64,000 nucleotides of DNA from an uncultured virus (IMG/VR IMGVR_UViG_3300008117_000029) (lineage: Duplodnaviria > Heunggongvirae > Uroviricota > Caudoviricetes): IMG/VR virus record IMGVR_UViG_3300008117_000029, positions 1 through 64,000 of that record. One strand, given 5' to 3'. How positions within the stretch are numbered: the stretch's first letter is position 1; every line of letters begins with the position of its first letter. Below, piece by piece: positions 12,192 through 40,121 of the stretch. Both the position numbers and the translations under genes were made by a program. The notes beneath the pieces were generated by a model. It made no database searches. It had not been told where the DNA came from and was given only the letters and a program-made list of their open reading frames with translations.

Positions 12192-12192
12192 A

Positions 12193-13242: not shown

Positions 13243-13243
13243 A

Positions 13244-14842: not shown

Positions 14843-14858
14843 TGTATAAATTTAATTT

Positions 14859-15245: not shown

Positions 15246-15246
15246 T

Positions 15247-16347: not shown

Positions 16348-16348
16348 A

Positions 16349-17997: not shown

Positions 17998-18000
17998 TTT

Positions 18001-19238: not shown

Positions 19239-20061
19239 TTTTTAGAGGAATTAATCTTCCACCCTCAACCCAATCACAATTTATAGTGTGCCAGTAAGAT
19301 TCGTAGATATCCTTTGCATTAGGACCTTTAGGACCGAACCAACGAGATGGGGCGACAATTTTTTTATTTAAGTTTTTGTTCAAAAATACACCCCACCATG
19401 AAAAAGTGGAGTTTGATATTATGTGATTTTGACAGAGTCCCATTAAGTATAATTCTCTCCAATCCTCAGACTCATTTACATAAACTACACTTGGAAAATT
19501 TAAATTTTGTTTAACAAAATCGTGGTCATCACTGAAAACAAATACTGTTGAGTATTCCCCAATTACTTTTAGAGCTTCTTGAATATACTCTAAACTAATT
19601 GTTGGGTGAATCTCAGGGAATTGAAGATATTCACTTCTTCTGACGTGGAGAGATAAAGTATTTGGTTGGGATAATTGAGGATATTTTAATTTCATTTCTT
19701 CGACCAATTCAGGGTTAGGTTGAAAAATATCTCTTATTTTTTCATCGTATCCAAACCAATTTTTGGAACTTTGATAGTATCCATAGAATGAGGTATTGGT
19801 TTCCAGTGGATTCACTTCAGAATACTCGAAAGGTCCTTCATATACGTGTGTAAAACCTTCAATCTTATCTGAAAATTCCAAGTTTCTGAATACGTTATCG
19901 ATGTAATTTTTAGCATTTCTCCCTTGACCTGGTGTCCAAGAATCAGGAAAGAATTTTACCTCTCTGTTGTGTTTCCAGCCTTGAGCTAAAGCGTGTGCAG
20001 CCTCAAACAATTGATTTCCTAATCCACCCATAAGGTGTGCTGATATTAAATTCGACATCAC
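19231..20061 (-). CDS. GT11 alpha-1,2-fucosyltransferase-like protein
   Basis: GGLGNQLF, GYYQS, SLHVRR, FSDD and NSTFSWWG motifs. Confidence 0.92.
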   Translation of the reverse strand: MMSNLISAHLMGGLGNQLFEAAHALAQGWKHNREVKFFPDSWTPGQGRNAKNYIDNVFRNLEFSDKIEGFTHVYEGPFEYSEVNPLETNTSFYGYYQSSKNWFGYDEKIRDIFQPNPELVEEMKLKYPQLSQPNTLSLHVRRSEYLQFPEIHPTISLEYIQEALKVIGEYSTVFVFSDDHDFVKQNLNFPSVVYVNESEDWRELYLMGLCQNHIISNSTFSWWGVFLNKNLNKKIVAPSRWFGPKGPNAKDIYESYWHTINCDWVEGGRLIPLKND

Positions 20062-20062
20062 T

Positions 20063-20710
20063 TTAATTTTTTACATATAGAGTATCACCCCAAACACTAT
20101 GAAATTGGTGATAGTATTTTTTATGAAATCCCTTGGACTCCATTAATGAATCTATTTCTGTGTCAATTTTCTGACCTTCGTATAATTCTACTTTAGCCGT
20201 CTCAATTACTATTATATTCGCATTAAAAATTAATTCACTCGAATTAAGTATTTCAAAATCATGTCCTTGTGTATCAAGACTGACTAAATCGAAATTAGAC
20301 TCTAAATTATTTTCAGAAATGAATTCATCTATGTTGATTGTATTAACTTGGCAAGTATCAACTTTCTGTATATCTTGATAAAGTTCCAAGTGGATTTTCA
20401 AATCCTGAAGGGATGAACATCCTGGGTTTGTTTTCGATGTGTTTTCAATTATGTTGAAACTAGCAACTCCTTTCTTATTGCTTACCGCATAGGGAAATAA
20501 TGAGTTTTCAAAATTATATCCTGCAAGGTTTTTTTCTAATTGGCTCAATAGTTTTGGGTTTGGTTCGAACCAGTAAACTTTTTTTGGATTGAGTCTGTTG
20601 TAAAAAGTTACTTCTTCACCTAAACACGCTCCGATGTGGAGGATGTTGTCTATTTTTTTTGTTTGGTTAATTTCCAAAATAATGTTTTCTATACTTGAAT
20701 CAAAACTCAT
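20063..20710 (-). CDS. FkbM-family methyltransferase
   Basis: HIGACLG, FEPNP and LDTQGHD motifs. Confidence 0.88.
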   Translation of the reverse strand: MSFDSSIENIILEINQTKKIDNILHIGACLGEEVTFYNRLNPKKVYWFEPNPKLLSQLEKNLAGYNFENSLFPYAVSNKKGVASFNIIENTSKTNPGCSSLQDLKIHLELYQDIQKVDTCQVNTINIDEFISENNLESNFDLVSLDTQGHDFEILNSSELIFNANIIVIETAKVELYEGQKIDTEIDSLMESKGFHKKYYHQFHSVWGDTLYVKN

Positions 20711-21417
20711 AGTTTTGTGTAGGGGGTTTTGTTTCTGATTTTATTGACCGTTTCAATAACCTTGTTCATATTGACTTTATGGTCATTGAGTGGGTTAGAT
20801 TCATTGTAAATATAATTTATGTCGGTCAAAAATCTATAATGTTCCATACCTGACATTTCAAACATCGGAAACATAAAAGATAGGTCACCAGCAACATCCC
20901 AATAGTTACCTTTGTCGTCTCTCAAGTCTTTTTCGTCAATTTTTTTCCAAAGCCAAGATTTCCATGTTCTCATGTGAGAAAGGGTGAAAACTTGTTTTCT
21001 TACATCTACATTTGTCGTAGGTGGATTTGCAAAACCTGGTCTTCCGTCATGATACTTGAACGAACCACTTGTCATCCAAACATTTTTATCTTCATAGACT
21101 TTTGCAATATTGGACAGAACTTGTGAGTTTGGTAACCAATCGTCTCCATCAATCTCAACACAGATTTCTTCCCCTTCAATACCTCTCCATCTTATTATTT
21201 GGTCGTAGTTGCCTGGTTGATAAAACTTGATATGATTTTCAATAAGAATAAACCTTGGGTCGTCAGATATAGTCCTTTTGATGATTTCTCTAGTTTTATC
21301 CGTAGATAAATCATCAGTTATGTAACATATAAAATCTTTGAATTTTTGACCCATTATACTCAACAAACACCTTTCAATGAATTGTTCGCAGTTAAAAGTG
21401 GTGGTTAGAATAATCAT
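20707..21417 (-). CDS. Glycosyltransferase family 2
   Basis: DDLSTD and IDGDDWL motifs. Confidence 0.88.
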   Translation of the reverse strand: MIILTTTFNCEQFIERCLLSIMGQKFKDFICYITDDLSTDKTREIIKRTISDDPRFILIENHIKFYQPGNYDQIIRWRGIEGEEICVEIDGDDWLPNSQVLSNIAKVYEDKNVWMTSGSFKYHDGRPGFANPPTTNVDVRKQVFTLSHMRTWKSWLWKKIDEKDLRDDKGNYWDVAGDLSFMFPMFEMSGMEHYRFLTDINYIYNESNPLNDHKVNMNKVIETVNKIRNKTPYTKL

Positions 21418-23042
21418 GATAAAACTTCTCTGTATATATTTTTTATTTTTTCACTTACTTTACTACTGTGGTATTTCTCAACGTCATCGGGAACTTGATA
21501 AAGTTCTTTAGAAATAATAAATCCATTCGAATCTACCTTATATATCCAACCTGGTTTCTGGCATAACCAACCCTCTATTGTTGTTCTACCCAATTGTATT
21601 CCGGCTGTCTCTGAACATCTATTTATAAAACTTTCAACATTCCAAGTTGGTGGGAAATGCTTGACGTGTGAATTCAAAAGAATTTGTGGAAGATAATTCG
21701 ATTTATCCTCTCCAACAATCCAAAGTTCCTTTTCATTTTCTTTTGTGTAGTCAATCAAATCCATTATTGTTTCTCTTCTAAGATAATCTATAGTCCCAAC
21801 AAACAATATCGCGTTTTCTTTTTTTACATTCTTAGTAACAAATTTGTTTTCATCTATAGGGTTATAAATCACTTCAATCTCATTTTCAGAAATCTGAAAA
21901 TTTTCAATCATATAATTTTTTATTTCAGGTCTGATTGCAATGTATTTTTTTATAGATTCATGTTTGATTGGATTTTCTAATTCAATGACTTCAGAATGTA
22001 TCGAATAAACTTTTTCAACCTCAGGATAGAATTGAATCATCCTTTCCGCAACAGGTTTGTGTTGCATATGAATAATATCGAATGGCGCCTCTGTAACTCT
22101 ATACATCATATTTGGTGTAGAAGGTTGAAATCCTTTTTCCGTTGTAAATCCCCATTTCCCGTCACCCAATTTAAAACCAGGCGCTTGTTCGAAACTTATA
22201 ACCTTGATACCTTGTCTTTTTGCCATATCGGTTAACACTCCACCTATTTGAGACATGATTGTAACATCACAACCCAATTTTTGTAATTTTTGTGCTAATT
22301 CATAAACGTATAATTCAGAACCGGTAAAAGTTTTAAAAAATAAACAACTCAATAAAACTCTAATTTTTCTTTGAGTATCATATGGTATTTTGACAGGTAG
22401 GTTTTGGCTGTATTTGGTTTCGAATAACTGTCTATTTTTTTCCCATTGGTCATTGGTGGCACCGATTGATTTGTGAGTTATTCTTATATTTGTGATTACT
22501 CCAATCTTAACACCTTCCATAAAGTTTTCAAAACAAAATGGGATATCATAGAAATGAAATCCTTCGAATTCTTCATTGAAGTTTTTCTTAATTCGACTTT
22601 TACTGACAGCAATGAAAACACCGTCCAAGACAATCACAGGAGTCACCGAACTACCAATTGATTCCGAGTATTTTGATTCCCATTTTTTTCCTCCACTTTC
22701 GTGATTAACAATTCCTATCATTTTTCTTCTATCCTCCCACCATTTTCCACTCGCGGGCATAGATGTTGTTCCTGCCATACCGATAATACCATAGTCGGTT
22801 TTTTCGAAATGTTTAGTGATTTTGGAATACCAGGAGTTTGTATCGAAATAAATGTCATCATGACAAAATACGATAATATCAGTTTCTGATTCTTTCAGAA
22901 TTTCGTTATAAACTTGAGCCAATGATTTTTCTCCGTTATTTATTTTTTCAATAACGTTAATTTTTTTGTATCCTGATGACTTTTTTAAATATTCTATAAA
23001 TTCAGGCTTGTGTTCTCTGCTTGAATAACCAACTGTTATCAT
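21414..23042 (-). CDS. Two-domain glycosyltransferase (GT-A plus GT-B)
   Basis: N-terminal VFCHDD...FHFYD and C-terminal TGSELY...VIYNPID...GRTTIEG. Confidence 0.8.
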   Translation of the reverse strand: MITVGYSSREHKPEFIEYLKKSSGYKKINVIEKINNGEKSLAQVYNEILKESETDIIVFCHDDIYFDTNSWYSKITKHFEKTDYGIIGMAGTTSMPASGKWWEDRRKMIGIVNHESGGKKWESKYSESIGSSVTPVIVLDGVFIAVSKSRIKKNFNEEFEGFHFYDIPFCFENFMEGVKIGVITNIRITHKSIGATNDQWEKNRQLFETKYSQNLPVKIPYDTQRKIRVLLSCLFFKTFTGSELYVYELAQKLQKLGCDVTIMSQIGGVLTDMAKRQGIKVISFEQAPGFKLGDGKWGFTTEKGFQPSTPNMMYRVTEAPFDIIHMQHKPVAERMIQFYPEVEKVYSIHSEVIELENPIKHESIKKYIAIRPEIKNYMIENFQISENEIEVIYNPIDENKFVTKNVKKENAILFVGTIDYLRRETIMDLIDYTKENEKELWIVGEDKSNYLPQILLNSHVKHFPPTWNVESFINRCSETAGIQLGRTTIEGWLCQKPGWIYKVDSNGFIISKELYQVPDDVEKYHSSKVSEKIKNIYREVLS

Positions 23043-23212
23043 TATCCTAATCTTTTTTTCTTTGCTTCTTTTATAATTTCGTGTGGTGTTTTGTTGGGGT
23101 CAATTTTGGATATTTGGATGCAATCCAAAATAAACTCAGCGAGCAAATGTTTCCTCTCTAGTTTTTTGATTAATTCAATCAAAGTGTCCAGATTTTCGTA
23201 GTATTTTCCCAT
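23042..23212 (-). CDS. Small hypothetical protein
   Basis: Start moved to MGKYY (23212) to avoid overlap with dUTPase. 56 aa. Confidence 0.55.
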   Translation of the reverse strand: MGKYYENLDTLIELIKKLERKHLLAEFILDCIQISKIDPNKTPHEIIKEAKKKRLG

Positions 23213-23222
23213 TATCAAAAAT

Positions 23223-23828
23223 TTAAATTCCTGTGCTTCCAAAACCATTGTCTCCCCTGTCTTTTTGACCAATCTCATCAACAGGAACTAAATTGACAAA
23301 TCTTCCGTTTTTCACAGGACAAAGAACTGCTTGAGCAACTTTCATGTTTTTTGAGATTGTAAATTTGGTTGGGTTTGCATTAAAAACAGGCACTTTTATT
23401 TCCCCTGTGTATCCTTGGTCTACGGTGCCTGGCGAGTTTAAGACCATTAAACCTTGATTAACTGCTAATCCACTTTTGGTTCTTATTTGTATTTCATATC
23501 CCTCTTCGAAATTGAACTTTAGACCAGTAGAAACCAAACCTCTTCCAAATGGTTCTAAGGTCATTTCATCAACAGAATATAAATCAAATCCTGAATCAGT
23601 TGGGTAGTTATATGATGGAAAGATTGCGTCCTCATGAATTAGTTCAATCTCAACCGTTTGTGTCTGTAATGCAATTGTTGCGTCGGCATTCATTTGTTCC
23701 ATGGACATCCCAAATAAATCTTCCAACTCACGTTGGTAATTCTCATCAGGTTCCATACCTACCTCATCCTTTATCCTTTGGAATTGTTCCATGATTTCTT
23801 TCAGAAGTTCTTCATCTTTTTTTTGCAT
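23223..23828 (-). CDS. dut: Trimeric dUTPase with an acidic N-terminal extension
   Basis: SGFDL, KSGLA, GTVDQGYTGEI and RGDNGFGSTG (motifs I-V). Confidence 0.95.
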   Translation of the reverse strand: MQKKDEELLKEIMEQFQRIKDEVGMEPDENYQRELEDLFGMSMEQMNADATIALQTQTVEIELIHEDAIFPSYNYPTDSGFDLYSVDEMTLEPFGRGLVSTGLKFNFEEGYEIQIRTKSGLAVNQGLMVLNSPGTVDQGYTGEIKVPVFNANPTKFTISKNMKVAQAVLCPVKNGRFVNLVPVDEIGQKDRGDNGFGSTGI

Positions 23829-23829
23829 G

Positions 23830-24531
23830 TTATTTAAGTTTTTGAATTTTTTTAATTACATCAATTAATACAGACACATCTTTCTCACAATATTTTACAA
23901 TACCTTCAATATCTTTTTTTACCCAAAAAGCGTCATGAACCTTATTACCTGTAATTTCCATGGTCTTCGAAGATTCTACACCCAAACATACACACATAAG
24001 TTCCAAGGATGCAATTGAGCCATAGCCACCGTATTGCCAAAATTCCTTAGTGTCAAAAGCCTTTATTTCCCAAGGTTTCGTATCGTGTCCTGGTAATATC
24101 TTTGGTGGTTGAAAACCGTTTATAATCATTCTTTTAGCCAACATTGGAATGTCAAAACCTTTTACATTATGTCCACAAAGAAAAAAACCTAACTCCCCAA
24201 CTTTTTGTAAAAGTTTCTGAACTTCAAATAATATCTTTTTCTCATCAGGGTCACTGAAAGATTGCATTCGTGTGTTACCTTGTTCGGTCACAAATGCAAC
24301 ACTTATACATGCAATTCTTGCAAACTCAGGGACAAGTGCCGCTCTATTGACGAACATATCACCGATTGGTTTGTCCGCATCTTCTGGGAATCTTTTTTGA
24401 AACCAATCAAAATAGTTTTCAAATTGGAAAGACAACGCTGGTTGGTTTTTTACCAAGGAATCCCAATTGGGTTGGACTCCAACGGTTTCGATATCTAAAA
24501 AAAGAATCTTACTAAGTGGAATGTTTATCAT
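23830..24531 (-). CDS. Stand-alone DEDDy 3'-5' exonuclease (PolB-exo-related)
   Basis: LDIET, GHNVKGFD and YCEKD motifs. Confidence 0.88.
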   Translation of the reverse strand: MINIPLSKILFLDIETVGVQPNWDSLVKNQPALSFQFENYFDWFQKRFPEDADKPIGDMFVNRAALVPEFARIACISVAFVTEQGNTRMQSFSDPDEKKILFEVQKLLQKVGELGFFLCGHNVKGFDIPMLAKRMIINGFQPPKILPGHDTKPWEIKAFDTKEFWQYGGYGSIASLELMCVCLGVESSKTMEITGNKVHDAFWVKKDIEGIVKYCEKDVSVLIDVIKKIQKLK

Positions 24532-25739
24532 AATATAGATTTATAAAACTCTGCTCTATGTTTGGTGACTATGTTCAAATCATATTTGTCCTTCACGGTT
24601 TCATACAACCTTTCACCTAAATCGGTAACCCAATTTCTATTTTTTTCTAATTTTTCTATAAACTTAGCCCAATCTGAATGATTTCTATTTTCTTCAACTA
24701 AAAGAGCATTACCGTCTGTAAATTCTCCATTTTTTAAAGCGTGTTTTAAATCTATTGTATAAGGACCTAAGTTAGAAGCAATTATTGCTTTTTTGTAAAA
24801 ACCAGCCTCAATTACTTTAAGTTGAGATTTCATTCTGTTGAACATATGATTTTTAATTGGTGCTAAAGATATGTCGAACTTTGAATAGTTTTTTGCATAT
24901 GACTGAACTGGTTTGGTCCAGACTCTGATATATGATTCTTTGTTTTCTTCAGGGTAAGATTCTTGAGAGTATTTCAAAAGATAATTTTTATATTCTTCGG
25001 ATACAATAGAGAAATCTTGTGTGAATATTTTTTCGTAATTAGCCCAAACAGTTTCGTGTGGTAATATGTTTCTTTTTTTATGTTCTCCTGTTTGTTGGTT
25101 GATTTCAGTTATTGTTCCTCTTGTGTCAAATCCACAAATTACAAACTGTAGTTTGTCTGAAAGTTTAGATAACTTACTGAATGATTGGTCTAACAACTGT
25201 AGGTCGTGTAGATGAGAAGAACCTCCAAGCCAACCTACTCGTAATCTGTCTGATTCAGGTGTTGGTTCCTTAAATTGTGATTCTGTTGGGTTAATTGCGT
25301 TTGGAAAAACGAAAACGTTTTTGTTCAATTTTTTTATTTCGTCTGCAAATATTGAGGTAGTTGTTGTAACAAATTCGGCGACTTTGAGATTGTTTGTAAT
25401 TTTCTCATTTATTTTGTTGAATCTTATTACATCGTGGATTGGGTGTTCCTTACCTGGCATCCAATAGTCATCGATGTCACATATTGTTTTAATTCCCATT
25501 GATTTCAATCTCGGAATCAATTCATAGGCTTTTTCGAAATCAGCACCTAAACTTCTATGGAACGCAACTATTTGGTATTTCTTCCAAAAAGAATCATCGT
25601 TATACGGAACTTCATATATAATATCGACATGAAACTCTTCAGGATATAAATTTTGTAGAAAAATGTGAGGGTCTACAGACCTAAATTTGCCAACACCTGT
25701 TCTATCTGATGGGACAACTAATACGTTAATTTTGGGCAT
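24528..25739 (-). CDS. Glycosyltransferase, GT-B (GT4-like)
   Basis: DIDDYW, VGWLGGSSH and KSQLKVIEAG...IIASN motifs. Confidence 0.82.
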   Translation of the reverse strand: MPKINVLVVPSDRTGVGKFRSVDPHIFLQNLYPEEFHVDIIYEVPYNDDSFWKKYQIVAFHRSLGADFEKAYELIPRLKSMGIKTICDIDDYWMPGKEHPIHDVIRFNKINEKITNNLKVAEFVTTTTSIFADEIKKLNKNVFVFPNAINPTESQFKEPTPESDRLRVGWLGGSSHLHDLQLLDQSFSKLSKLSDKLQFVICGFDTRGTITEINQQTGEHKKRNILPHETVWANYEKIFTQDFSIVSEEYKNYLLKYSQESYPEENKESYIRVWTKPVQSYAKNYSKFDISLAPIKNHMFNRMKSQLKVIEAGFYKKAIIASNLGPYTIDLKHALKNGEFTDGNALLVEENRNHSDWAKFIEKLEKNRNWVTDLGERLYETVKDKYDLNIVTKHRAEFYKSIL

Positions 25740-28436: not shown

Positions 28437-30986
28437 ATGTCGTATCAGAATATTAATCAATACAATTTTAGAAGGTTAGGCCTATTACCTGTTAATGAAA
28501 TAACGGATATTTGTCTTGCGTCAGACGAAAAAACCTTTGACCAAGAGGTAATTTTTTCACCATTATTAATTGGTGATGATGACGGTAATAGAATGCCTTT
28601 TAAATTTGAATTTAATTCGACAGGGACAACTGTTGCGACAGTCTCTGCGGTAACATTTGATTTTGATACCATAGTATCCGAAAACTACTGGAACCCAGAC
28701 AACCTCGACCCAAATTTTTGTCCATCAGCACAAACTCTTTGTGATGTTGGTCTTACGGGTATTGATAATGGTTTAGTAAAAAGAATGTCGGGTGAAACAA
28801 TTGAGATAACGACTGGTCTATATACAAACATATCCGACAAGTTTTCAAGATACAAATATGATAGGAGAATGAAACTTCATCCTATCACAGGTTTTACAAC
28901 AACAAGTAACCGTCTTTGGAATGATGATTCATATACCTACGATTTATCGTATGACAGTTATGGTGATTTAGTAGGAAATTTTGCCAGATTGAATGGAGGA
29001 TTTTACCAAGGATTCTATAAGTTACCAGGTTATACCTATCAAGTATTCCCTCAAAGACCTCATTGGGGTTGGACAACTGAGGTTATGTTACGTTATAGAT
29101 GGACTGGTGATACAAATGTAGGTTTGAATAAAAGATACCCTGAAAATAAAGGGGCATTCTTCTACATGGGTGCGAGAGCCGAAAACAAATTTTATCATTA
29201 TGCGGACGGACACCCAAAACAAGATACAGGTTACACAAGAGTTACATCTGGGTTGACTTGTATGCATACCTGCGAATGTCTACTGACGGGAATTACCGCT
29301 GAACATTCTTGTATGAAAGTTTATCAACAATCGGGAGGAACATCAACAAATTGCTCCTGTGGTTGTCCGTGTAATTGTGAAACAACTGTCAAGTATCCTG
29401 AGCTAGACCCACTATATGACGGAGTGTCAAATGCACTTTCTTTGAGATTGAGTGGGGACACTGGTAATCCAAGACTGTGTGTTAAAACATATAGAATTAC
29501 AGGGGATTGTGAATTTACAGGTGCATGCCTGTCGGGTTTAACTTATGTTACTGGTGTTACAGTAAATGAATGGTGTTCAACAAGGGGTATCTTCCATGAT
29601 TGTGAACAAACTGATTATTCAAAGCTTGAGCATTGGGTACAAATAGATGCTGTTTTTGAAAGAAATGAATGGTTTGATACTTGTGATTTATATGAAAAAG
29701 GGGGATTAGGTTTGATAACAGAAACAATCTATACCGCTACTCCTGCTCACAATAGTGTTAGTCTTATTGAACCTCCTCTAACCCATGAGAAAGATTATGA
29801 CCCGGCAACAACTGAAATTGTAACTTTTAATGACAATTGGACACTTGAACAAATATACCGTTTGGGTAAATTCAAGTTATACGTAAATGGTAGACTTTTC
29901 ATGGTTGTTGAAAACTTTGAAGAGATTATTCCGAGACTTTTAGACACACCAAGAGAAAAACAAATAGGCGTTTCTTATAACATTTCTGTTGGTGGTGGAA
30001 CACAGGGATTACACGACAACCTTACATTCTCAGGAGGATGTCCTGAAACTGTTGACGAAATAGTTTATCAACAAGACCCAGAGTGTTTAACAACACATGA
30101 TTTGGACAACACAATCTATTCAGGTTTAACAACACACATCAAACTTGAAGAATATTTTGGTGGCAGTTTAATTGGGGACATTAGTGCATTTAGAATGTAT
30201 ACAGAGCCTTTAAATGCTTCACAGATTTGGCACAATTTCAAAATTCAAAAAGACAAATATGATTTGTTAGACCCTAAGTGTCCTGACTGTAGAGTTTTAA
30301 TTTTACCAACACCTTCACCTACAGTAACTCCTACTGTAACACCAACACCTTCGATTACCGCTTCGGAAACACCAACCTTGACACCAACAAGTACGGAAAC
30401 ACCAACCGTTACGCCATCAGAAACCCCAACAAATACTCCTACACCTTCAATTACTGCAAGTCCTGGTCAAACTCCAACTGCAACTGAAACTCAAACACCT
30501 ACACCTACCGAGACACCAACAAATACTCCTACAGAAACATCAACTCCTACATCCACACCTTCGGAGACACCAACTGAAACTCCAACCGAAACACCTACCA
30601 ACACTCCAACACCGACGAAATTGAGATTCGCGTTTAATGTTTGTTCGGGAACTACTTTGATTGATGCATGTCAATGTGTTGATAATGGAATTATATATGG
30701 TGAGTTTGAGAACTTCGATGAGAATAATCAATTCTTTGATTCTCCTACGGGTTCAAACACGGTTAATCTTTCTGGATATTATTCATATAATAACATTGTG
30801 GTTGAACTTGATTCAGAGGGGTTCACAATTGGTAGTTTCTCAATATGTCCTACAACAACACCAACATCAACGGTTACACAGACTCCGAGTGAGACGCCAA
30901 CACAAACTCCGAGTGAAACCCCAACAAATACCCCAACTCAAACTGAGACACCAACACAAACTCCTACTGAGACTCCCTCAAACTGA
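28437..30986 (+). CDS. Virion fibre/decoration protein: Cys-rich LamG/ConA-like domain plus Thr/Pro mucin-like repeats (5' part of an interrupted gene)
   Basis: KLYVNG...[19 protein letters not shown] resembles a LamG C-terminus. TPT repeats run up to the stop codon. Confidence 0.75.
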
Positions 30987-31641
30987 GACTCCAACAGAAA
31001 CTCCTACTAACACTCCAACAGGAACCCCGATAGAAACCGTAACCCAAACACCAACAGAAACTCCTACTAACACTCCAACTGAAACTCCTACAAATACGCC
31101 AACTGAGTCTCCAACTCAAACACCTACTAATACTGTAACACCAACCATAACCGATACTTCTACATCTACGCCTACTCCAACAATTACAGATACACCTACT
31201 AATACTCCTACTAATACTACAACTCCAACAATTACAGATACACCTACTAATACTCCTACTAATACTACAACTCCAACAATCACAGATACACCTACTAATA
31301 CTCCTACTAATACTGAAACTCCAACTCAAACACCAACACCTGATGTAACACCTAATCCTGTTTGTGATATTCAAATAACCTTACTACCAACACCTACTCC
31401 TTCGTCAACTCAGACACCAACACCAACAAATGAACCAAGTCCAACACCTACTGAAACTCCAACTCAAACACCAACACCTGAGGTAACAAGTACTCCAACA
31501 CAAACCAACACACCAGATGTAACACCTACACCAACTCAAGCGATTGTACCAAGTGACCCAACCCTTGAAATTTATTATCAAGGTCAGACTGGTGACCAAT
31601 TTAACCCTAATGCAACAAGTGGTTCGACATTTACACAATGG
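30976..31641 (+). CDS. Frameshifted continuation of the Thr/Pro-repeat protein
   Basis: TETPTNTPT repeats resume in the +1 frame. There is no credible independent start codon. Confidence 0.65.
31174..31317 (+). repeat. 48-nt tandem repeat, three near-identical copies ([16 protein letters not shown])
   Basis: Units start at 31174, 31222 and 31270. Confidence 0.9.
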
Positions 31642-31642
31642 C

Positions 31643-32137
31643 TTATCATCAAAATCAGGACAAACAATCATTATGGTTGTTAAGACACTCAATTCAACTA
31701 ATACGGCTCAATATATTCAGGGAGGTTCTGATGGAAATACAGGGTTGGATGCAACATACATAAGACAAAGTGGTTCAACATACAACATTGCGGCTGGTGG
31801 TGGTTTTGCTACGGGTGGTGTTGTTAATACAAATCCACACATTATATCTTATGTGTTTAGTGGAACAGGTGTGACCAATCAAGATAAATTAAAGTTTTAT
31901 ATTGATGGTTCAGGACAAACCTTGACCTATATAACTAATGTTGGAACAACAACAAATGCACTTCTTGATTATGTGTTCTTGGGAGTATCCTATACGGGAG
32001 CACCCGCGGGAACCACACAGTTCTTCTATAATGGATTTTTGTTTGATGTGTTAGCTTACAGTAGAGCTTTATCTCCATCGGAGTTACAATCTGTCCAACA
32101 ATATCTATCAAATAAATGGAATATACCACTATTATAA
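31643..32137 (+). CDS. LamG/ConA-like C-terminal domain (second frameshifted continuation)
   Basis: LKFYIDG...[30 protein letters not shown]. Confidence 0.65.
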
Positions 32138-32138
32138 A

Positions 32139-32414
32139 ATGACTACAGGAGTACAAATATCAAGCACGAATTTTAATGGTCAGATAGCCAATATTACCTT
32201 TTATCCTGATACGGGAGGAACTGTGAGCTTGGGTGCAAATGTGTTACCATATACGGTTGAGTTGGAATATTTTAATGGAAGTTATGAACTTTATTTTGGG
32301 GCTTTTGACCAAACATGTTATACCTATATTTCTAACCCCGATACAAACTATTTATTACAAGAAGATTATTCAACCCTTGACCAAGAGGATAATTACAAAA
32401 TTTTAATTACATAA
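32139..32414 (+). CDS. Small putative virion protein
   Basis: 91 aa, with a YLLQED motif, in the fibre operon. Confidence 0.7.
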   Translation: MTTGVQISSTNFNGQIANITFYPDTGGTVSLGANVLPYTVELEYFNGSYELYFGAFDQTCYTYISNPDTNYLLQEDYSTLDQEDNYKILIT

Positions 32415-32415
32415 T

Positions 32416-33051
32416 ATGCCTAATTTACCAATATCTGCATTACCAGAATTAACCGCGATGACTGCCAACGCTGAATTCGCAGTTGCTCAAGGAGGAGTAA
32501 CTTATCGTGTTAAAAATAGCACATTAGCACCATTTCCAACTGTTTATGGATTATTTTCCCAAACGGCAAATAGCGTATCAATTAGTGCAACAACTGTTGA
32601 AGGGACTTTAATCAATGGGGGTGTTGGAACTCTTACCGTTGGTGCGAATCAATTTCAAATTGGGGATTCTTTTAGAGCGGATTTTGGTGGGTTATTGTCT
32701 TCAAAAAATGGAGACACAATTCAAATCCGTGTGAAGGCGGGTTCAGTTGTGTTGGCGGACAGTGGTGTACAAACTATGAGTTCAGCGACAGACGATGTTT
32801 GGCAGTTCTCAATAAATTTTACAATTAGAACTCTTGGTGTTGCTGGAGTTGCCGATATTGTATCTCTTGGAGTATTTCATACAACAAAACAATCAAGTGG
32901 TGTTCCTGCAGGTTTTGCGTTCAATACTGTAAACGATACAACCTTTGATACAACTATTCCGAATACTCTGAATGTGACTGCTCAGTTTAGTTCTAATAGT
33001 CCTTTGAACTCAATTTTCAGTGATATTTTTGTTCTGAATAAGATTTATTAA
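32416..33051 (+). CDS. Putative virion fibre-associated protein
   Basis: MPNLPISALPEL N-terminus and a beta-rich body. Confidence 0.7.
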   Translation: MPNLPISALPELTAMTANAEFAVAQGGVTYRVKNSTLAPFPTVYGLFSQTANSVSISATTVEGTLINGGVGTLTVGANQFQIGDSFRADFGGLLSSKNGDTIQIRVKAGSVVLADSGVQTMSSATDDVWQFSINFTIRTLGVAGVADIVSLGVFHTTKQSSGVPAGFAFNTVNDTTFDTTIPNTLNVTAQFSSNSPLNSIFSDIFVLNKIY

Positions 33052-33102
33052 AAAAGAAAATAAAATTGAGCGAGTTCTCAGTATTTATATAAAAAAAGTA
33101 AA

Positions 33103-35099
33103 ATGGCTTGTAGTAAATATATTTTACAACTTTCAACTATAGAAGATGCGAAGATTCAATGTGGGATTACCAAGTAGAATTAGAACCAAATCAGGTAAAA
33201 AACATTTGGTTGATAGATGGAACATATTCCACGGCGAATACAACAATCGTTCTCCAAAATATGGGTGCGTTCCCACCAACTGGACCCACACCTACTCCGA
33301 CATCTAGTCCGACTCAAACACCTTCGAACACTGCAACGCCTACAACAACACCAACCAATACTCAGACACCAACTGCGTCAGAAACACCGACAAATACTCC
33401 AACGTTCACACAGACTCCGACTAACACGGAAACTCCAACGCAAACTCCAACACCTACAAACGTTGAGAGAACTGCTATTGTGAGATGTCACGATGAGACG
33501 GATATATTACTAACTTGTGATTGTGTTCAAACAGCAAACATATTTGTAAATGGAACAAGTTTGGCGGATTCAACATTAGTTTGGTCAGATGCTACAGGTC
33601 CAAATACAGGTAATCCGGAAGGTTATTATACTGAAGATGGTATTATTTACATAGTTGCTTCTGGTTGTGGACCAGGTTGTATTACGGGAGCTACAATTAC
33701 AGTTGATGGAAATTGTGGTCCAACACCAACTCCTACTTCAAGTCAAACACCTACACCAACTCCAACTAACACAGAAACACCAACTCAAACTCCAACACCT
33801 ACACCGACACCAGTAAGATTTGAGTTTTCAGTAGGTTCAGGTTCAACTGAGAATGAAGCATGTTCTTCAGGAATAGTTGGAAATATTTGGGGTAATGCGG
33901 TTCTTTTCGATAACTGCACACAATTCTATCCTGAAAGTTTTGGTCCGTCAACAATGTTGGCAGGTTTTTATAACAGTTCAAATATTGTAACAGAAATAGA
34001 TTCGAATGGTGCTCAAGTGGGTGCATTCAGTTCTTGTTTGGTTGTTCCAACACCAACAGCAACTGTAACCGCATCTCCAACTGAAACACCAACACCGACT
34101 CCAACTACAACACCAACAGCAACATTTGGATACTATACATATAATTTAGGTTCAGGTTCAACTCCGAATGAAGCTTGTTTGGGTTCAACTAATCCTGTCT
34201 ACGGAACTGTAGCGGGTGGAGTAGGTCCAAACGTTGGTGAGTCACTTTATCAAAATACAGCTCTGACAGTTCCTGTTATTGATGGTTATTATTCTAATGG
34301 GATTGCTTGGTTTATTGTTAGCGGTGGAGCAGGATTGATTACAAGTTCCGACCCTAACGGATGTTCGAACTTACCGACACCGACACCTACAGTGACTTCA
34401 ACATCTACACCAATATCATCACCAACACCAACAACAACTCAAACACCAACCAACACAGAAACTCCAACTCAAACACCAACCAACACAGAAACTCCAACTC
34501 AAACACCATCTCAAACTGCAACATACACACCAACACCTACTGAAACACCAGGAACTTTCGCATTAATTGGTGCAACTAAATTTTCAACAGTGTCTGGATT
34601 GGACGCTTGTTCAGGAGGAACTTCGACAACTTCTTATTACTATAATCAACCGTCATATCCGAATGATATCATATTTAGTGGGGCATCTTTCTCAGATATT
34701 TATCCATCAGGATGGCTTAACTTACTTGGCGGTGGCGGATGGGAATTAACTAACGGTGAAATAACAGGAACTCTTATTTGTCCCGAAATCATAGCGGTTA
34801 ACGAATCAACAGGTGGAGCGGAAATTATAGATTTTGTTGATGATGGTGGAAGTATAACACTTACCAATCTATCAGGAGCTTTACCTGTAACATCAGGTCA
34901 AACTTTTACAGCACTACACGGTCTAACATTCGGTAATCCAAGAGCTTCTATAACAGGAACTCCTGTTAATTTTATAGTTGAACTTAATGGGTCGTTCTTA
35001 TATTCAGGGTCAACAATCCCACCATCAATGATTGGATTAACTAGTGGTGGAGTTCCTTTACAAGATACAGATGTAGCAAAAATCACACTTACAGATTAA
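33103..35099 (+). CDS. Thr/Pro-repeat virion protein with four Cys-flanked modules; 5' end frameshifted near 33126 (intact ORF from 33159)
   Basis: The TATTTAT-preceded ATG at 33103 (MACSKYIL) is out of frame with the main ORF. TPT linkers separate the repeated modules. Confidence 0.75.
34435..34508 (+). repeat. 30-nt tandem repeat, about 2.4 copies ([10 protein letters not shown])
   Basis: AAACACCAACCAACACAGAAACTCCAACTC is repeated exactly. Confidence 0.9.
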
Positions 35100-35118
35100 A
35101 TTTAAAAATAATAAAGAT

Positions 35119-35148
35119 AAAACCCTCTACTTTCGTGGAGGGTTTTTT
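35119..35148 (+). terminator. Rho-independent terminator
   Basis: CCCTCTAC-TTTC-GTGGAGGG hairpin followed by T6. Confidence 0.85.
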
Positions 35149-35169
35149 ATTTTTAGACAAAAAGATAAT

Positions 35170-36444
35170 ATGTCTAACAGTAAAATTTTTATTCAAATCG
35201 CATCATACAGGGACCCACAGTTAGTTCCAACACTCAAAGATATGATTGCAAACGCTAAAAAACCAAAGAACTTGGTTTTCTCAATCGCAAGACAATTTAG
35301 TGAAACAGATGGATTTGACAACTTAGATGAGTTTAGAGAAGATAAAAGATTCAAGATTTTAGATATACCTTATCAAGAATCTAGAGGCGTTTGTTGGGCA
35401 AGAAACTTAACCCAACAACTTTACGATGGTGAAGGATACACAATGCAAATTGATTCCCACATGAGATTTGTAAAGGATTGGGATGAAATATTAATAAAAA
35501 TGATTAAGGGTCTACAAAAGGATGGGTATGAAAAACCTCTACTTACGGGTTATGTGCCCTCCTTTGACCCTGAAAATGACCCAGCGGGAAGGGCACAAGA
35601 TGCTTGGAGAATGGCATTTGATAGATTCATTCCTGAGGGTGCTGTGTTTTTTCTCCCTGAAACAATTCCTGGTTGGAGAGAGATGACAAAACCCGTAACA
35701 GCGAGATTTTATTCTGCACATTTTTGTTTTACTTTGGGTCAGTTTTCTCTAGAAGTCCAACACAATCCTGAATATTACTTCCACGGAGAAGAAATCTCAA
35801 TTGCAGCTAGAGCTTACACATGGGGTTATGATTTATTTCACCCTCACATTCCTGTTGTCTATCATGAATACACACGTAAGGGTAGGACAAAACAATGGGA
35901 TGATGACAAAACTTGGGGTGAGAAAAACAAAGTATCCCATTTGACCAACAGAAAACTTTTTGGTATGGATGGTGAAACCCAAGAGGGTCATGATGGACCT
36001 TATGGTTTTGGTCCTGTGAGAACTTTAAGAGAATATGAGAAGTATGCTGGTATTTTATTTGAAAAGAGAGCTGTTCAAAAATATACACTCGATAAGAATT
36101 ATCCTCCAAACCCATATAACTATTCATCAGAGGAAGATTGGAAAAATGATTTTGCTAAGGTATTCAAACATTGTATAGATATTGGATACTCACAGGTTCC
36201 TGAAACGGATTATGATTTTTGGGTTGTGGCTTTCCACGGACCTAACGACGAAACTTTATTCAGAAAGGACTCCGACAAAAATGAAATTGCTGGTTATATG
36301 AGAGACCCTGACAAATATTGTAAGATTTGGAGAGAATTTCAAACGGACGTTACTCCCACATATTGGGTTGTTTGGCCTCACTCGGTATCAAAAGGATGGT
36401 GTGATAGAATCACTGGACAATTAAATCATAATGTTGTAAGCTAA
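35170..36444 (+). CDS. GT60-like polypeptide N-acetylglucosaminyltransferase (Skp1 Gnt1 / trypanosome mucin ppGlcNAcT family)
   Basis: IFIQIASYRDP, SRGVCWAR, QIDSHMRF (DxH), FHGEEI, RAYTWGYD and VYHEY motifs. Confidence 0.88.
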   Translation: MSNSKIFIQIASYRDPQLVPTLKDMIANAKKPKNLVFSIARQFSETDGFDNLDEFREDKRFKILDIPYQESRGVCWARNLTQQLYDGEGYTMQIDSHMRFVKDWDEILIKMIKGLQKDGYEKPLLTGYVPSFDPENDPAGRAQDAWRMAFDRFIPEGAVFFLPETIPGWREMTKPVTARFYSAHFCFTLGQFSLEVQHNPEYYFHGEEISIAARAYTWGYDLFHPHIPVVYHEYTRKGRTKQWDDDKTWGEKNKVSHLTNRKLFGMDGETQEGHDGPYGFGPVRTLREYEKYAGILFEKRAVQKYTLDKNYPPNPYNYSSEEDWKNDFAKVFKHCIDIGYSQVPETDYDFWVVAFHGPNDETLFRKDSDKNEIAGYMRDPDKYCKIWREFQTDVTPTYWVVWPHSVSKGWCDRITGQLNHNVVS

Positions 36445-37187
36445 TGATTTTCAAAGACATACCAAAATTTGTTATAAATTTGGAAAGTAGACCTGACAGA
36501 CTTGAAGATATAAAGTTCGAGATGAATTACATCGGTTGGGATTACGATTTGTTTAAGGCTGTTCCACGTAACGATTATATGGGTTGTGCTCTTTCTCATT
36601 TGTCAATAATTGAAATGGCTAAAGAAAGAGGTTACAAGAGAGTAATGGTGATAGAAGATGATTGTGTATTTATGCCTTATGCAAAAAATTTCATTGAGGA
36701 TTTGGAGAGAAATATAAATGGAATTGATTTTGGTGTATTGAATCTTTCTCCAACACTCAATCGTCCAATGAACGTCAGTGAAAAATACAGTATGCTTTTG
36801 GATTTGACAAACTTACCTCCAAAACCACATGAAAGATTGACCGAAACTTTCGCAACAAATATTCTGATATACGATGAATCATCTTTCGAAAAAATAGAAA
36901 AAATTAAAGATAAGTGTTTTTATAGTGGTGATTTTATCATTCCTATTGATGAACAATTGGTAAAACATGTGTATCCTTCAATTCAATCATATGCACCAAT
37001 CTTACCAATTGCCCCTCAGAAAAATTCTTATTCTGATGTGTCGCAGGGAATGTATAACAATTTCTACGCCCAAACATACAATTGGAATGTCTATTCACCA
37101 ATCAAGATTAATCACAGATTTTTGAATGAATCAGAAAATAAAAAAATGAAAACAGAAAAAAAATATTTACCTTATAATGTCAACTAA
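36444..37187 (+). CDS. GT25-like glycosyltransferase
   Basis: VINLESRPDR, GCALSH and IEDDC motifs. Confidence 0.85.
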   Translation: MIFKDIPKFVINLESRPDRLEDIKFEMNYIGWDYDLFKAVPRNDYMGCALSHLSIIEMAKERGYKRVMVIEDDCVFMPYAKNFIEDLERNINGIDFGVLNLSPTLNRPMNVSEKYSMLLDLTNLPPKPHERLTETFATNILIYDESSFEKIEKIKDKCFYSGDFIIPIDEQLVKHVYPSIQSYAPILPIAPQKNSYSDVSQGMYNNFYAQTYNWNVYSPIKINHRFLNESENKKMKTEKKYLPYNVN

Positions 37188-38061
37188 GTTTATAACCGCA
37201 ATTTATAGTGACCTTTATGGAACTGAATTTGGTGGTAGACCTAACAGAGGTGCCCACTATAGATATAGTTTATTGTCATTATTGAAGATGACCGATGCGG
37301 ATTTTTTATGTTATACCTCGGATAGAGAAATAGATTCCCTAAAGAAATTTTTCTATGAAGAAAACAATATACCAGAATCCAAGTTGAAATTTACAACATA
37401 CGATATTTCAAATTCCAAGTTTAAACATTTAATTGATTCGAGAAAAAATGTCGATGAGATTAAAAGAGGGGATAGATGTATCGAAATACAATATTCTAAA
37501 TTTTCATGGTGGTGGAATGAGGATAAATCCTACGATAACTATTATTGGATAGACGCGGGATTATCCCATTGTGGTTTAATACCTCTCAAGTATTTGACTG
37601 AAACAAAACATGCCTTAAGAAGATTTTATGAAAGCAATTTGTTTGATAATGATTTTTTGAAAAATTTGATAGAAGACACTAAAGACAAATTTTTAATTTT
37701 AGGAAAAGAAAATGAAAGAAACTATTGGTCAGGAACTGTAAGTCCAAGATGGTATAAAAATTATGATAGAAGTATTCATATCATAGGAGGATTGTTTGGT
37801 GGTCACAGGGACAAGTGGGATAATATAGTCAATATATTCGAAAACTATGTCCAAGAAGTTTTATCTAACGATGAGGGTTTACCTCATGAAGAACAAATAA
37901 TGACTCTTATGTATTTCAATCATATTGAGTTATTTGAGAGAAAACATTTTGATATTTGGTGGTGCAGGGATAATGCACCTCAAGGTGTAACAGATGAGTT
38001 ATTTCAGAAAAATAAAAGTTTCTATAAAATATTAGAAGAATTTAAAAGAATTTATGAGTAA
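37177..38061 (+). CDS. HtrL/WlaTC-like glycosyltransferase
   Basis: FITAIY, YYWIDAG, GGLFGG and EEQIM motifs. Confidence 0.72.
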   Translation: MSTKFITAIYSDLYGTEFGGRPNRGAHYRYSLLSLLKMTDADFLCYTSDREIDSLKKFFYEENNIPESKLKFTTYDISNSKFKHLIDSRKNVDEIKRGDRCIEIQYSKFSWWWNEDKSYDNYYWIDAGLSHCGLIPLKYLTETKHALRRFYESNLFDNDFLKNLIEDTKDKFLILGKENERNYWSGTVSPRWYKNYDRSIHIIGGLFGGHRDKWDNIVNIFENYVQEVLSNDEGLPHEEQIMTLMYFNHIELFERKHFDIWWCRDNAPQGVTDELFQKNKSFYKILEEFKRIYE

Positions 38062-39727
38062 TATAACACTTGTAACAGGAATTTGGGACATCGGAAGAGG
38101 TGATTTAAGTGAAGGTTGGTCAAGACCTTTTCAACATTATTTGGATAAATTTGAAAAACTATTGGATGTCAATACCAATATGATTATCTATGGTGATAAA
38201 AGTTTAGAGGAATTTGTTTTTTCAAAAAGGGATAAGTCAAATACACAATTTATTGTAAGAGACATGTCTTGGTTCAGGAATAATGAATTTTTTGATAAAA
38301 TCCAAAACATAAGAAATAACCCTGAGTGGTATAATCAAGTTGGTTGGTTAAAAGATTCAACTCAATCGAGATTGGAAAACTATAACCCGTTGGTTATGTC
38401 AAAAGTTTATCTTTTGAATGATGCAAAAATAATGGATAGGTTTGATTCAGAATATCTGTTTTGGATTGACGGTGGGTTGACAAATACTGTGCATCCTGGT
38501 TACTTTACACACGACAAGGTTTTGGATAAATTAGTAAAATATATCTCCAAATTCAGTTTCGTTTGTTTTCCTTATGAAGCTAATACAGAAGTCCACGGGT
38601 TCAATTTCGATAAGATGAACTCTATGGCAGGTGCTAAAGTTGAGAGGGTTGCTAGAGGTGGGTTCTTCGGTGGACCAAAACACTCAATATCAGAAATCAA
38701 TTCAATATATTATTCTCTGATGAAAGAAACCTTGGATTCGGGATATATGGGAACTGAAGAATCTTTATTCAGCATAATGTGTTATAGACACTCCGAGTTA
38801 ATAAATTATTTTGAAATAGAATCAAATGGTTTGTTAGGTAAATTTTTTGAGGATTTGAAGAACGATGATTTGAAAGTAAAAACAGAATCAGTTCATAGAC
38901 AAGTTTCAAATTTGGATATTAACAAAGTTGGTCTATATGTTATAACTTTCAATAGTCCAAACCAATTCAAAACGTTGATTAATTCAATGTTAATGTATGA
39001 TAAAGAATTCATACTTAAAACAAAAAAATTCTTACTTGATAACTCAAGTGATTTGTCAACAACAGAAGAGTATAAACAACTTTGTGATGAATATAATTTT
39101 GAACATATCAAAAAAGATAACTTGGGTATTTGTGGAGGAAGGCAGTGGATTGCAGAACATTTTGAAGAAACAGATTTGGATTATTATTTGTTTTTTGAAG
39201 ATGACATGTTTTTTTATCCGAATGAAGGTTCGAAATGTAAAAACGGTTTTTCAAGATACGAACCAAATCTATTTTCAATCTCGATGCAAATAATGCAAAA
39301 GGAAAACTTTGATTTCTTAAAATTGAATTATTCTGAATTCTACGGAGATAACGGGACTCAATGGTCTTGGTATAATGTTCCTCAAGATGTTAGGTCAAAG
39401 TATTGGCCCTTAAATCCAAGATTACCACAAATAGGATTGGACCCGAATGCGCCAAAGACAGAGTTCAAAAAAGTTCTTTCACACAGAAAAGTTCCATATG
39501 CGACAGGCGACATATATTATTGTAACTGGCCTCAAATTATTTCAAGACCAGGTAACAAAAAAATGTTTTTGGATGTTACTTGGGCACATCCATTTGAACA
39601 AACGTGGATGAGTCATATGTATCAACTGACAAAAGAAGAAAAATTAAATCCTGGTTTACTTCTAATGACACCAACTGAACACGACCGTTTCGAACATTAC
39701 AACAGAGAGTTACGTAAAGAGTCCTAA
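38054..39727 (+). CDS. HtrL/WlaTC-like glycosyltransferase fused to a C-terminal GT-A domain
   Basis: TLVTGIWDIGR, FWIDGG, RGGFFGG and GTEES, then a second domain with FFEDDM. Confidence 0.75.
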   Translation: MSNITLVTGIWDIGRGDLSEGWSRPFQHYLDKFEKLLDVNTNMIIYGDKSLEEFVFSKRDKSNTQFIVRDMSWFRNNEFFDKIQNIRNNPEWYNQVGWLKDSTQSRLENYNPLVMSKVYLLNDAKIMDRFDSEYLFWIDGGLTNTVHPGYFTHDKVLDKLVKYISKFSFVCFPYEANTEVHGFNFDKMNSMAGAKVERVARGGFFGGPKHSISEINSIYYSLMKETLDSGYMGTEESLFSIMCYRHSELINYFEIESNGLLGKFFEDLKNDDLKVKTESVHRQVSNLDINKVGLYVITFNSPNQFKTLINSMLMYDKEFILKTKKFLLDNSSDLSTTEEYKQLCDEYNFEHIKKDNLGICGGRQWIAEHFEETDLDYYLFFEDDMFFYPNEGSKCKNGFSRYEPNLFSISMQIMQKENFDFLKLNYSEFYGDNGTQWSWYNVPQDVRSKYWPLNPRLPQIGLDPNAPKTEFKKVLSHRKVPYATGDIYYCNWPQIISRPGNKKMFLDVTWAHPFEQTWMSHMYQLTKEEKLNPGLLLMTPTEHDRFEHYNRELRKES

Positions 39728-39743: not shown

Positions 39744-40121
39744 ATGGAATTTTATATCAAACAAAATGCTACGTTACCAGTTTTGAAAATGCAAGTCGTA
39801 AAAGACGGTAGAGCGGGGTATATTCAGTTTATGGAAGCGTTGGAGGTTTCCACAATATATTTCACTATGATAGATTATGAGACTGGGATTCCAAAAATAG
39901 TTTCAGCCCCATGTGAAATAGTTAATCTCATTTTGGACCCTGGTGCTCCTGCAGAATACTACATTTATTTCAAATTTACTTCGAGAGATACTGATACGCC
40001 AGGAAGATACGAAGGACAATTCTTAATCAAAAATGATGAAGGAAATTTAATTCTTCCAATCAGAGAACAACTTTATATTAATATTCAACCAAGTTTCATT
40101 TCCGAAACTGCGTGTTGTTGA
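39744..40121 (+). CDS. BppU N-terminal-like virion adaptor protein
   Basis: FYIKQNATLP...DTDTPGRYEGQF, with TATTTAT 4 nt upstream. Confidence 0.6.
   Translation: MEFYIKQNATLPVLKMQVVKDGRAGYIQFMEALEVSTIYFTMIDYETGIPKIVSAPCEIVNLILDPGAPAEYYIYFKFTSRDTDTPGRYEGQFLIKNDEGNLILPIREQLYINIQPSFISETACC

Follow-up and report, generated by a model that had tools for sequence, protein, structure and literature searches.

A GT60-led transferase cassette proposed to O-glycosylate threonine/proline-linker proteins of a freshwater jumbo phage

Our analysis concerns the first 64 kb (64,000 nucleotides, hereafter the window) of the 137,794-bp IMG/VR record IMGVR_UViG_3300008117_000029, an uncultured phage genome estimated to be 46% complete, in which two genes carrying long threonine/proline (Thr/Pro) tracts lie upstream of a cassette of four putative transferase genes headed by a member of family GT60. 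The reading we favour, and regard as probable, is that the Thr/Pro-linker proteins of the phage are O-glycosylated in the host cytoplasm by enzymes that it encodes itself, with the GT60 enzyme as initiator and an enzyme with two GT-A domains in tandem as the constant extender. Virus-encoded glycosylation of a virus's own structural proteins is a known kind of system, of which this would be a new, GT60-led variant. The proposal is built on family membership, predicted fold, the lack of membrane segments, a conserved gene order and a genomic association between GT60 and Thr/Pro tracts in both phages and bacteria, all of them seen in our analysis, and from these we infer the donor, the acceptor residues, the glycan, the virion location and the biological role. 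To our knowledge, self-encoded glycosylation of phage particles has been documented chemically in a few cases only. The mucin-type initiators of family GT60 are known as protist enzymes, and a literature search that most subscription journals lay outside found no paper tying GT60 to phages or to prokaryotic Thr/Pro tracts; the one paper retrieved for PF11397 concerns a brown alga.

The first enzyme of the cassette (Table 1) belongs to GT60 by profile, as a sequence-only reading of this DNA had led us to expect from its GT60-like appearance, and has a GT27-like predicted fold. It matches PF11397 with an E-value of 4.6e-66 and 224.1 bits (cut-off 21), covering profile positions 2–43 and 95–351 of 352, and phrog_24687 with an E-value of 4.7e-164. 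Its relatives fill 4441 clusters at 50% identity (E ≤ 0.001); many of them (P0122, P0123, P0125 and others) are giant proteins of 1300–2460 aa with three or four GT60-like stretches. Across 38 aligned sequences, 35–89% identical to the phage protein, D95 and H97 (a D-S-H motif) and H232 are invariant, which we take to be metal ligands, the D-x-H presumably being, by analogy, the counterpart of the GT27 metal motif. The AlphaFold model (predicted local distance difference test, pLDDT, 94.3) consists of a GT-A domain at about residues 1–330 and a C-terminal beta-rich domain at about 330–417. When the model was compared with the PDB using VIA-align, the top 29 entries were all GT27 polypeptide GalNAc-transferases (Z 19.4–22.4, root-mean-square deviation 3.4–3.9 Å over 259–284 residues, 10–16% sequence identity), other GT-A enzymes reached a Z of 17.9 at most, and the best Foldseek matches were likewise GT27 polypeptide GalNAc-transferases. 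In this family, alpha-N-acetylglucosamine (GlcNAc) passes from uridine diphosphate (UDP)-GlcNAc to Thr/Ser or hydroxyproline residues of a polypeptide; for the phage enzyme, the genomic association with Thr/Pro tracts may point, indirectly, to such an activity.

The four plus-strand genes downstream of the hairpin overlap by 1, 11 and 8 nt, which is consistent with the coupled arrangement read from the letters alone. The second protein lies above the cut-off of PF01755 (E 1.3e-12, 48.5 bits, cut-off 24), so the GT25-like label given to it earlier stands, but on a partial match of 59 of the 199 profile positions (68–126). Two HtrL-like genes had also been claimed, and one of these holds: the 557-aa enzyme matches PF09612 over 252 of 267 positions (E 1.9e-21, 77.3 bits, cut-off 24.1) and scores 83.9 against TIGR02192, below the equivalog cut-off of 264.9, making it a member of the HtrL/YibB family and not YibB itself. 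The 294-aa protein, on the other hand, has no Pfam or NCBIfam match, and it is tied to HtrL solely by weak BLAST similarity (E 8.4e-4) to the first domain of the 557-aa enzyme. The model of the latter (pLDDT 89.8) has two domains and matches tandem GT-A proteins with E-values of 1e-11 to 1e-7, among them human LH3, Mimivirus R699, LARGE1, the chondroitin polymerase K4CP, COLGALT1 and heparosan synthase 2, at low template-modelling scores because the domain orientations differ. Its C-domain carries an invariant E-D-D motif, and three bacterial loci encode the halves of the enzyme as separate genes. Nothing usable came from searching the PDB by sequence with the GT60, 557-aa and 294-aa proteins, and no functional study of an HtrL glycosyltransferase was found in the literature. 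In sequence, the four enzymes and the Thr/Pro proteins are without membrane segments, and none shows an obvious signal peptide.

The candidate acceptors are the two large Thr/Pro-repeat genes that the sequence-only reading had pointed out; both are present and co-oriented, and with gene 1 in its intact form their tracts together hold about 670 residues, although gene 1 is not one open frame in the window. Gene 1 encodes a Cys-rich N-terminal part of ~615 aa without known family, two Thr/Pro tracts flanking a Cys-containing module of ~65 aa, and a C-terminus with a weak, sub-threshold LamG_3 match; the intact tracts comprise 396 residues (161 Thr, 24 Ser, 86 Pro), and those of gene 2 comprise 273 (95 Thr, 23 Ser, 51 Pro). 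An ESM Atlas search with the C-terminal part of gene 2 gave no usable match. Compared with the intact gene of G001, a complete relative described below, gene 1 of the window shows no mismatch and only two clean deletions, of 80 nt at 30976/30977 and of 149 nt at 31641/31642. The intact gene is present in six near-identical contigs, and contigs from four of four public runs bridge 31641/31642 with the 149 nt present, the junction of the window being found in none. As the intact form thus occurs in contigs of relatives and of public runs, the break probably arose in assembly or else represents a rare variant in this record; programmed frameshifting and an alternative genetic code were considered for the three-frame gene and rejected, since the two record-specific deletions explain the frames. 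The terminator that had been placed at 35119–35148 corresponds to the hairpin listed in Table 1.

Table 1 Features of the GT60 locus and of the second sugar-enzyme block in the window.
Feature	Position	Strand	Remark
Second sugar-enzyme block	11385..25739	-	Larger than the cassette; overlooked by the sequence-only reading
Thr/Pro-tract gene 1	28437..32137	+	Three frames in this record; intact form 1309 aa
Two small genes, 91 aa and 211 aa	32139..33051	+	Between the Thr/Pro genes; no Pfam or PHROG family match
Thr/Pro-tract gene 2, 646 aa	33159..35099	+	Four tracts between small Cys-containing modules
Terminator-like hairpin	35119..35146	+	12-bp stem, 4-nt loop, T run; between Thr/Pro and enzyme genes
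GT60 (PF11397) glycosyltransferase, 424 aa	35170..36444	+	Proposed initiating polypeptide N-acetylhexosamine (HexNAc)-transferase
GT25-like glycosyltransferase, 247 aa	36444..37187	+	Proposed extension enzyme
Proposed transferase, 294 aa	37177..38061	+	31% identical to XacN1 ORF332
Tandem GT-A enzyme, 557 aa	38054..39727	+	N-domain HtrL_YibB-like (1–279), C-domain 290–557
125-aa gene without known family	39744..40121	+	Conserved in 72 of 78 relatives

The window encodes a T4-type major head protein, tail sheath, tail tube and baseplate parts, together with a family-B DNA polymerase and replication genes. The complete relative G001 (321,139 bp, direct terminal repeats) has a GT60 gene 100% identical to that of the window and nearly the same sequence as this record outside repeat regions; the source phage is therefore a jumbo myophage of ~321 kb. 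In 77 of 80 IMG/VR relatives, whose GT60 is 84–100% identical, one to five Thr/Pro-rich open-reading frames (ORFs) lie directly upstream on the same strand, and the three exceptions have less than 1 kb of upstream DNA. The Thr/Pro genes vary widely in number and length among these relatives, whilst the enzymes stay conserved: the 557-aa gene follows downstream in all 78 relatives with enough DNA and the polymerase in 71 of 71, the GT25-like gene is found in 67 of 80 and the 294-aa gene in 67 of 79. The 80 relatives are close kin, so this synteny shows conservation and not independent association.

A more distant comparison comes from deposited phages. GT60 relatives were present in four only of 50,697 records, the Xanthomonas jumbo phage XacN1, Xoo-sp13 and the Stenotrophomonas phages CM1 and RAS14 (44–50% identity), and in XacN1, Xoo-sp13 and RAS14 the genes are ordered GT60, carbamoyltransferase, 294-aa homologue and 557-aa homologue (41% identity), with an extra gene of ~246 aa between the last two in XacN1 and Xoo-sp13. 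Orthologue identities to XacN1 are 49% for GT60, 41% for the 557-aa enzyme and 31% for the 294-aa protein, and the cassette adjoins the DNA polymerase gene in the source phage and in the XacN1-type phages alike. A few kilobases away, past baseplate wedge genes, XacN1, Xoo-sp13 and RAS14 encode a protein of 3100–3300 aa with a Pro/Thr/Ser linker near its C-terminus. The nearest capsid relatives of the source phage among deposited phages are Microcystis phage Mel-JY01, the Flavobacterium ‘immuto’ phages, two uncultured huge phages and Rhodothermus RM378 (35–46% identity, over part of the protein), and XacN1-type capsids are absent among its 40 listed capsid matches. The cassette is therefore shared between distant jumbo phages. 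Counting codon patterns for (TP)3 in whole genomes gave 19 and 5 sites in two complete relatives and 29, 26 and 19 in XacN1, Xoo-sp13 and RAS14, all GT60-positive, compared with 0, 0, 0, 1 and 1 in the five nearest GT60-negative capsid relatives (reversed-pattern control 0–2). The synteny and co-occurrence of GT60 with Thr/Pro genes that the sequence-only reading had proposed as a check were found, upstream in 77 of 80 close relatives and as 5–29 against 0–1 sites between GT60-positive and GT60-negative genomes.

A corresponding association was observed in bacteria. We scanned one genome per species, obtained 587 GT60 relatives and used the best 79 loci (1.365 Mb), which come from Bacteroidota, Gemmatimonadota, Verrucomicrobiota, Acidobacteriota, Planctomycetota and Proteobacteria and include short contigs of metagenome-assembled genomes (MAGs), some of which may be phage DNA. 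An exact (TP)4 tract was present in 17 of the 79 loci, from at least about a dozen lineages, versus ~0.09 expected; the expectation follows from three loci away from GT60 in ten genomes (~47 Mb), or ~0.06 loci per Mb. Five of these genomes (24 Mb) were chosen for a tract near GT60 and held only three (TP)4 loci elsewhere, and in three of the five the tract beside GT60 is the only (TP)4 in the genome. By a strict protein-level definition, a Thr/Pro-rich ORF lies within 10 kb in 18 of 79 loci and within 1.5 kb in 10. The 557-aa homologue stands beside GT60 in 26 of 79.

Fifteen tract ORFs were scanned for families. VgrG-type spikes that end in a (TP)n run account for two of them (Achromobacter and Ralstonia), two have an Rv2525c-like glycoside-hydrolase-like domain, two are kumamolisin/subtilase-type peptidases, one has a LamG_3 and one a PqqD domain, six have no family, and one carries the C-terminal domain of a crAss ‘muzzle’, its contig therefore probably being phage. 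In the Achromobacter MAG (L134 15067–17535) and in Ralstonia (L151 12285–15146) VgrG holds, as its C-terminal part, the main or only (TP)n tract found genome-wide, 1–4 kb from a GT60 homologue; in four Paraburkholderia loci a tract lies at the same offset. VgrG spikes, like phage fibres, are built in the cytoplasm and exposed outside without the Sec pathway, which fits a soluble cytoplasmic transferase. In a Gemmatimonadaceae MAG (L109 8510–9232), a Thr/Pro/Ala-rich ORF with a PqqD-like domain is directly upstream of GT60. Such domains are the peptide-recognition element of pathways for ribosomally synthesised and post-translationally modified peptides.

Several known systems resemble the proposed one in part. 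In the serine-rich-repeat adhesins of Gram-positive bacteria (GtfA/GtfB, accessory Sec), O-GlcNAc-type initiation takes place in the cytoplasm on long hydroxy-amino-acid repeats and is followed by soluble extension; in contrast to the phage, the initiator there is a GT4 pair and not GT60, and the substrates are exported adhesins, not phage proteins or VgrG. In mycobacteriophages, work by Freeman et al. in 2023 reportedly placed glycans on the C-termini of capsid and tail-tube subunits. That mycobacteriophage transferases are phage-encoded and act on the phages’ own structural proteins is cited in the available part of the ‘moraphage’ paper (PMC12619734), which reports neither GT60 nor a long Thr/Pro tract for them and which describes four core glycosyltransferase groups in aquatic jumbo phages.

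Family GT60 comprises, in the accessible text of PMC8724618, protist polypeptide alpha-GlcNAc-transferases, among them those that start mucin-type O-GlcNAc glycans on Ser/Thr domains in Dictyostelium and Trypanosoma cruzi and a soluble, cytosolic member that modifies a hydroxyproline of Skp1, and the known GT60 and GT27 enzymes are described there as favouring Thr/Pro-rich mucin-type sequences. The phage enzyme shares family PF11397 with them, is soluble like the Skp1 enzyme, and its proposed acceptors are mucin-like as are those that this text gives for the Golgi enzymes; it differs in being phage-encoded and placed in a bacterial cytoplasm, in its additional C-terminal beta-rich domain, and in a tandem GT-A partner that is not known from the protist pathways. 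The GT27 enzymes of metazoans and Toxoplasma are the nearest solved structures over the catalytic domain, and the D-x-H motif is present in the phage enzyme, yet sequence identity is only 10–16%, the CAZy family is another one, and no ricin-type lectin domain was identified in the phage enzyme.

Phage XacN1 offers a comparison with a cultured virus. Schiff staining of its virions reveals at least two glycoprotein bands, which its authors attributed, in the part of PMC5852040 at hand, to ORF328/ORF334, and ORF334 is the GT60 orthologue. XacN1 combines an orthologous cassette, many (TP)3 tracts and glycoprotein-staining virions, whilst it differs in capsid lineage and host, its cassette adds a carbamoyltransferase, and the available portion of the paper draws no GT60–Thr/Pro link. 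The same portion (PMC5852040) describes giant viruses and chloroviruses as having their own nucleotide-sugar enzymes and many transferases, independent of host secretory glycosylation; Mimivirus R699 also turned up as a fold match to the tandem GT-A enzyme, but the hosts are eukaryotic and the linkages and enzyme families are others.

A second group of sugar enzymes lies on the minus strand of the window (Table 1). It contains a GT2, a GT1-like gene, two enzymes of the nucleoside diphosphate-sugar epimerase/dehydratase type, GT10-like and GT11-like members of fucosyltransferase families, three methyltransferases (TylF-like, FkbM), a further GT2, a GT2+GT4 fusion and a GT1-like gene, interspersed with PhoH, dUTPase and an exonuclease. 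For the epimerase-type enzymes, GDP-L-fucose synthase is the nearest NCBIfam model, with scores that fall far short of its cut-off. Possibly this block feeds the same glycosylation pathway as the cassette.

Under the reading that we favour, the GT60 enzyme would move the first sugar from a UDP-sugar to Thr (or Ser) hydroxyls in the host cytoplasm; by analogy this sugar would be a HexNAc, probably GlcNAc. Its targets would be the long Thr/Pro tracts that join small modules of fibre-like proteins. The tandem GT-A enzyme, the constant companion of GT60, would extend the glycan, the more variable GT25-like and 294-aa enzymes would add to it, and the minus-strand block may supply a 6-deoxyhexose nucleotide sugar and decorate the glycan with fucose-type and O-methyl groups. 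Exposed appendages would thereby gain linkers that are mucin-like, stiffened and protease-resistant; adhesion, protease resistance or shielding, the roles suggested by the sequence-only reading, would be candidates for their function.

The claim that GT60 initiates on phage Thr/Pro tracts is thus backed by family, predicted fold, synteny, the contrast between phage genomes, the bacterial control and the staining of XacN1 virions, but a number of observations weigh against it. The terminator-like hairpin parts the proposed substrates from the enzymes. The Thr/Pro genes do lie upstream of GT60, as the sequence-only reading had said, but they are not confined to this locus, for four more are found at 97960–119614 of the same record, far from the cassette, and adjacency alone is therefore weak evidence; the virion location of these proteins is taken from genomic context only, and the Schiff-stained bands of XacN1 carry no protein assignment in the available part of that paper. 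The (TP)3 contrast is one of five against five genomes with unlike base composition between the groups. In bacteria, Thr/Pro ORFs were modestly more frequent near GT60 than far from it (10 of 256 against 12 of 726, Fisher p 0.048, uncorrected for relatedness). GT60 as a family is not tied to the tracts: 62 of the 79 bacterial loci lack a (TP)4 tract within 10 kb of GT60, and in five of five genomes with GT60 and no nearby tract (23 Mb) (TP)4 is absent genome-wide, therefore many GT60 homologues must use other acceptors.

These points leave room for other explanations, the first of which is that the transferases build or remodel a non-protein glycan, such as host lipopolysaccharide (LPS), capsule or another polysaccharide, beside Thr/Pro proteins that are unglycosylated neighbours. 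HtrL/YibB, GT25 and the GT9 found in XacN1 belong to families that occur in LPS core loci, the minus-strand block resembles a polysaccharide gene set, the tandem GT-A fold is also like those of the polysaccharide polymerases K4CP, heparosan synthase 2 and LARGE1, and most bacterial GT60 homologues lack a Thr/Pro tract in their vicinity. We nevertheless think this unlikely: the GT60 fold is nearest to polypeptide transferases, ahead of polysaccharide GT-A enzymes, none of the four cassette enzymes has a membrane segment, and a polysaccharide product leaves unexplained why the sole (TP)n tract of a bacterial genome should sit beside GT60. Searches for a priming phosphoglycosyl transferase (PF02397/PF00953) and a Wzx flippase (PF01943) matched none of three complete phage genomes (G001, G002 and XacN1), which also argues against a polysaccharide although host enzymes could substitute; positive controls were matched in 9, 12 and 13 of 14 reference genomes. 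The cassette could instead glycosylate other phage proteins, perhaps subunits of the capsid or tail as happens in mycobacteriophages, with the Thr/Pro tracts as plain flexible linkers. The available text on XacN1 leaves its virion glycoproteins unassigned, the glycans of mycobacteriophages are carried by the C-termini of capsid and tail-tube subunits (cited in the available part of PMC12619734), a terminator divides the two gene sets, and Thr/Pro genes are scattered in the genome; the association of GT60 with Thr/Pro in phages and bacteria, and the preference of known GT60 and GT27 enzymes for Thr/Pro-rich mucin-type sequences given in the accessible text of PMC8724618, make this acceptor quite improbable in our view.

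Glycosylation of modified DNA bases, as in T-even phages and 5-hydroxymethyl-pyrimidine viruses, would fit the position of the cassette next to the DNA polymerase gene, here and in XacN1-type phages, and the C-domain of the 557-aa enzyme has weak sub-threshold matches to TAGT (E 0.0068) and to phrog_842, a beta-glucosyl-HMC (hydroxymethylcytosine) alpha-glucosyltransferase (E 7e-5). GT60 is not known to act on DNA, however, its fold is nearest to polypeptide transferases, and the thymidylate-synthase homologue of the complete genome scores as a true thymidylate synthase (TIGR03284, 303 bits, cut-off 108); together with the lack of a Tet_JBP match, in a search that matched no control genome either, this makes DNA a very remote candidate. 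A hydroxyproline route for GT60 is conceivable, and we do not favour it. The phage encodes oxygenases of the PF13640 type, of which the complete relative has three, and one 2-oxoglutarate-Fe(II) oxygenase of this type lies at 75487–76227 of the record (G000; L003 11688–12428), in the replication gene cluster, but tblastn found no PF13640 oxygenase near GT60 in 79 bacterial and 80 viral loci. Collagen-like repeats are another conceivable acceptor of the cassette enzymes by analogy, as the GT25 family, LH3, COLGALT1 and Mimivirus R699 are collagen glycosylation enzymes. The record also encodes a 1623-aa collagen-like tail-fibre protein (G000 99486–104357; L005 37–4908), directly after the Thr/Pro-tract gene at 97960–99447.

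Among the neighbouring genes, the one that follows the transferases had been called a BppU-like virion gene. It has no Pfam match at E 0.01 and no PHROG match at E 0.001, and the label is therefore unsupported; the gene after it encodes the family-B DNA polymerase. A small protein encoded at 26405–26809, on the minus strand and thus opposite to the Thr/Pro genes that begin shortly after it, has a weak WYL-domain match. Elsewhere in the window, at 44410–45948 (minus strand), the N-terminal half of a 512-aa protein (about residues 36–226) contains a complete Fe/Mn superoxide dismutase with both of its Pfam domains, followed by ~285 residues without an assigned family. Megablast of positions 28000–43000 against deposited phages gave no match, and the stretch 30400–32300 is present in 20 public runs from 15 studies, chiefly lake and freshwater metagenomes, with no RNA run listed among them.

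If the favoured reading is true, mucin-type O-glycosylation would reach viruses of bacteria, and there would be an explanation for the hypervariable Thr/Pro-linker proteins that these abundant freshwater jumbo phages carry. It would also provide a function for thousands of unannotated genes, given the 4441 clusters of GT60 relatives, and some bacterial injection spikes may be glycoproteins. More tentatively, and with considerable doubt, GT60 and the tandem GT-A enzyme may form a widespread prokaryotic and viral mucin-type system, which would place long, possibly repeating (proteoglycan-like) chains on the Thr/Pro linkers of exposed machines assembled in the cytoplasm, such as jumbo-phage fibres and VgrG spikes. 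Such a system would be the counterpart, in the bacterial world, of eukaryotic mucin and matriglycan synthesis.

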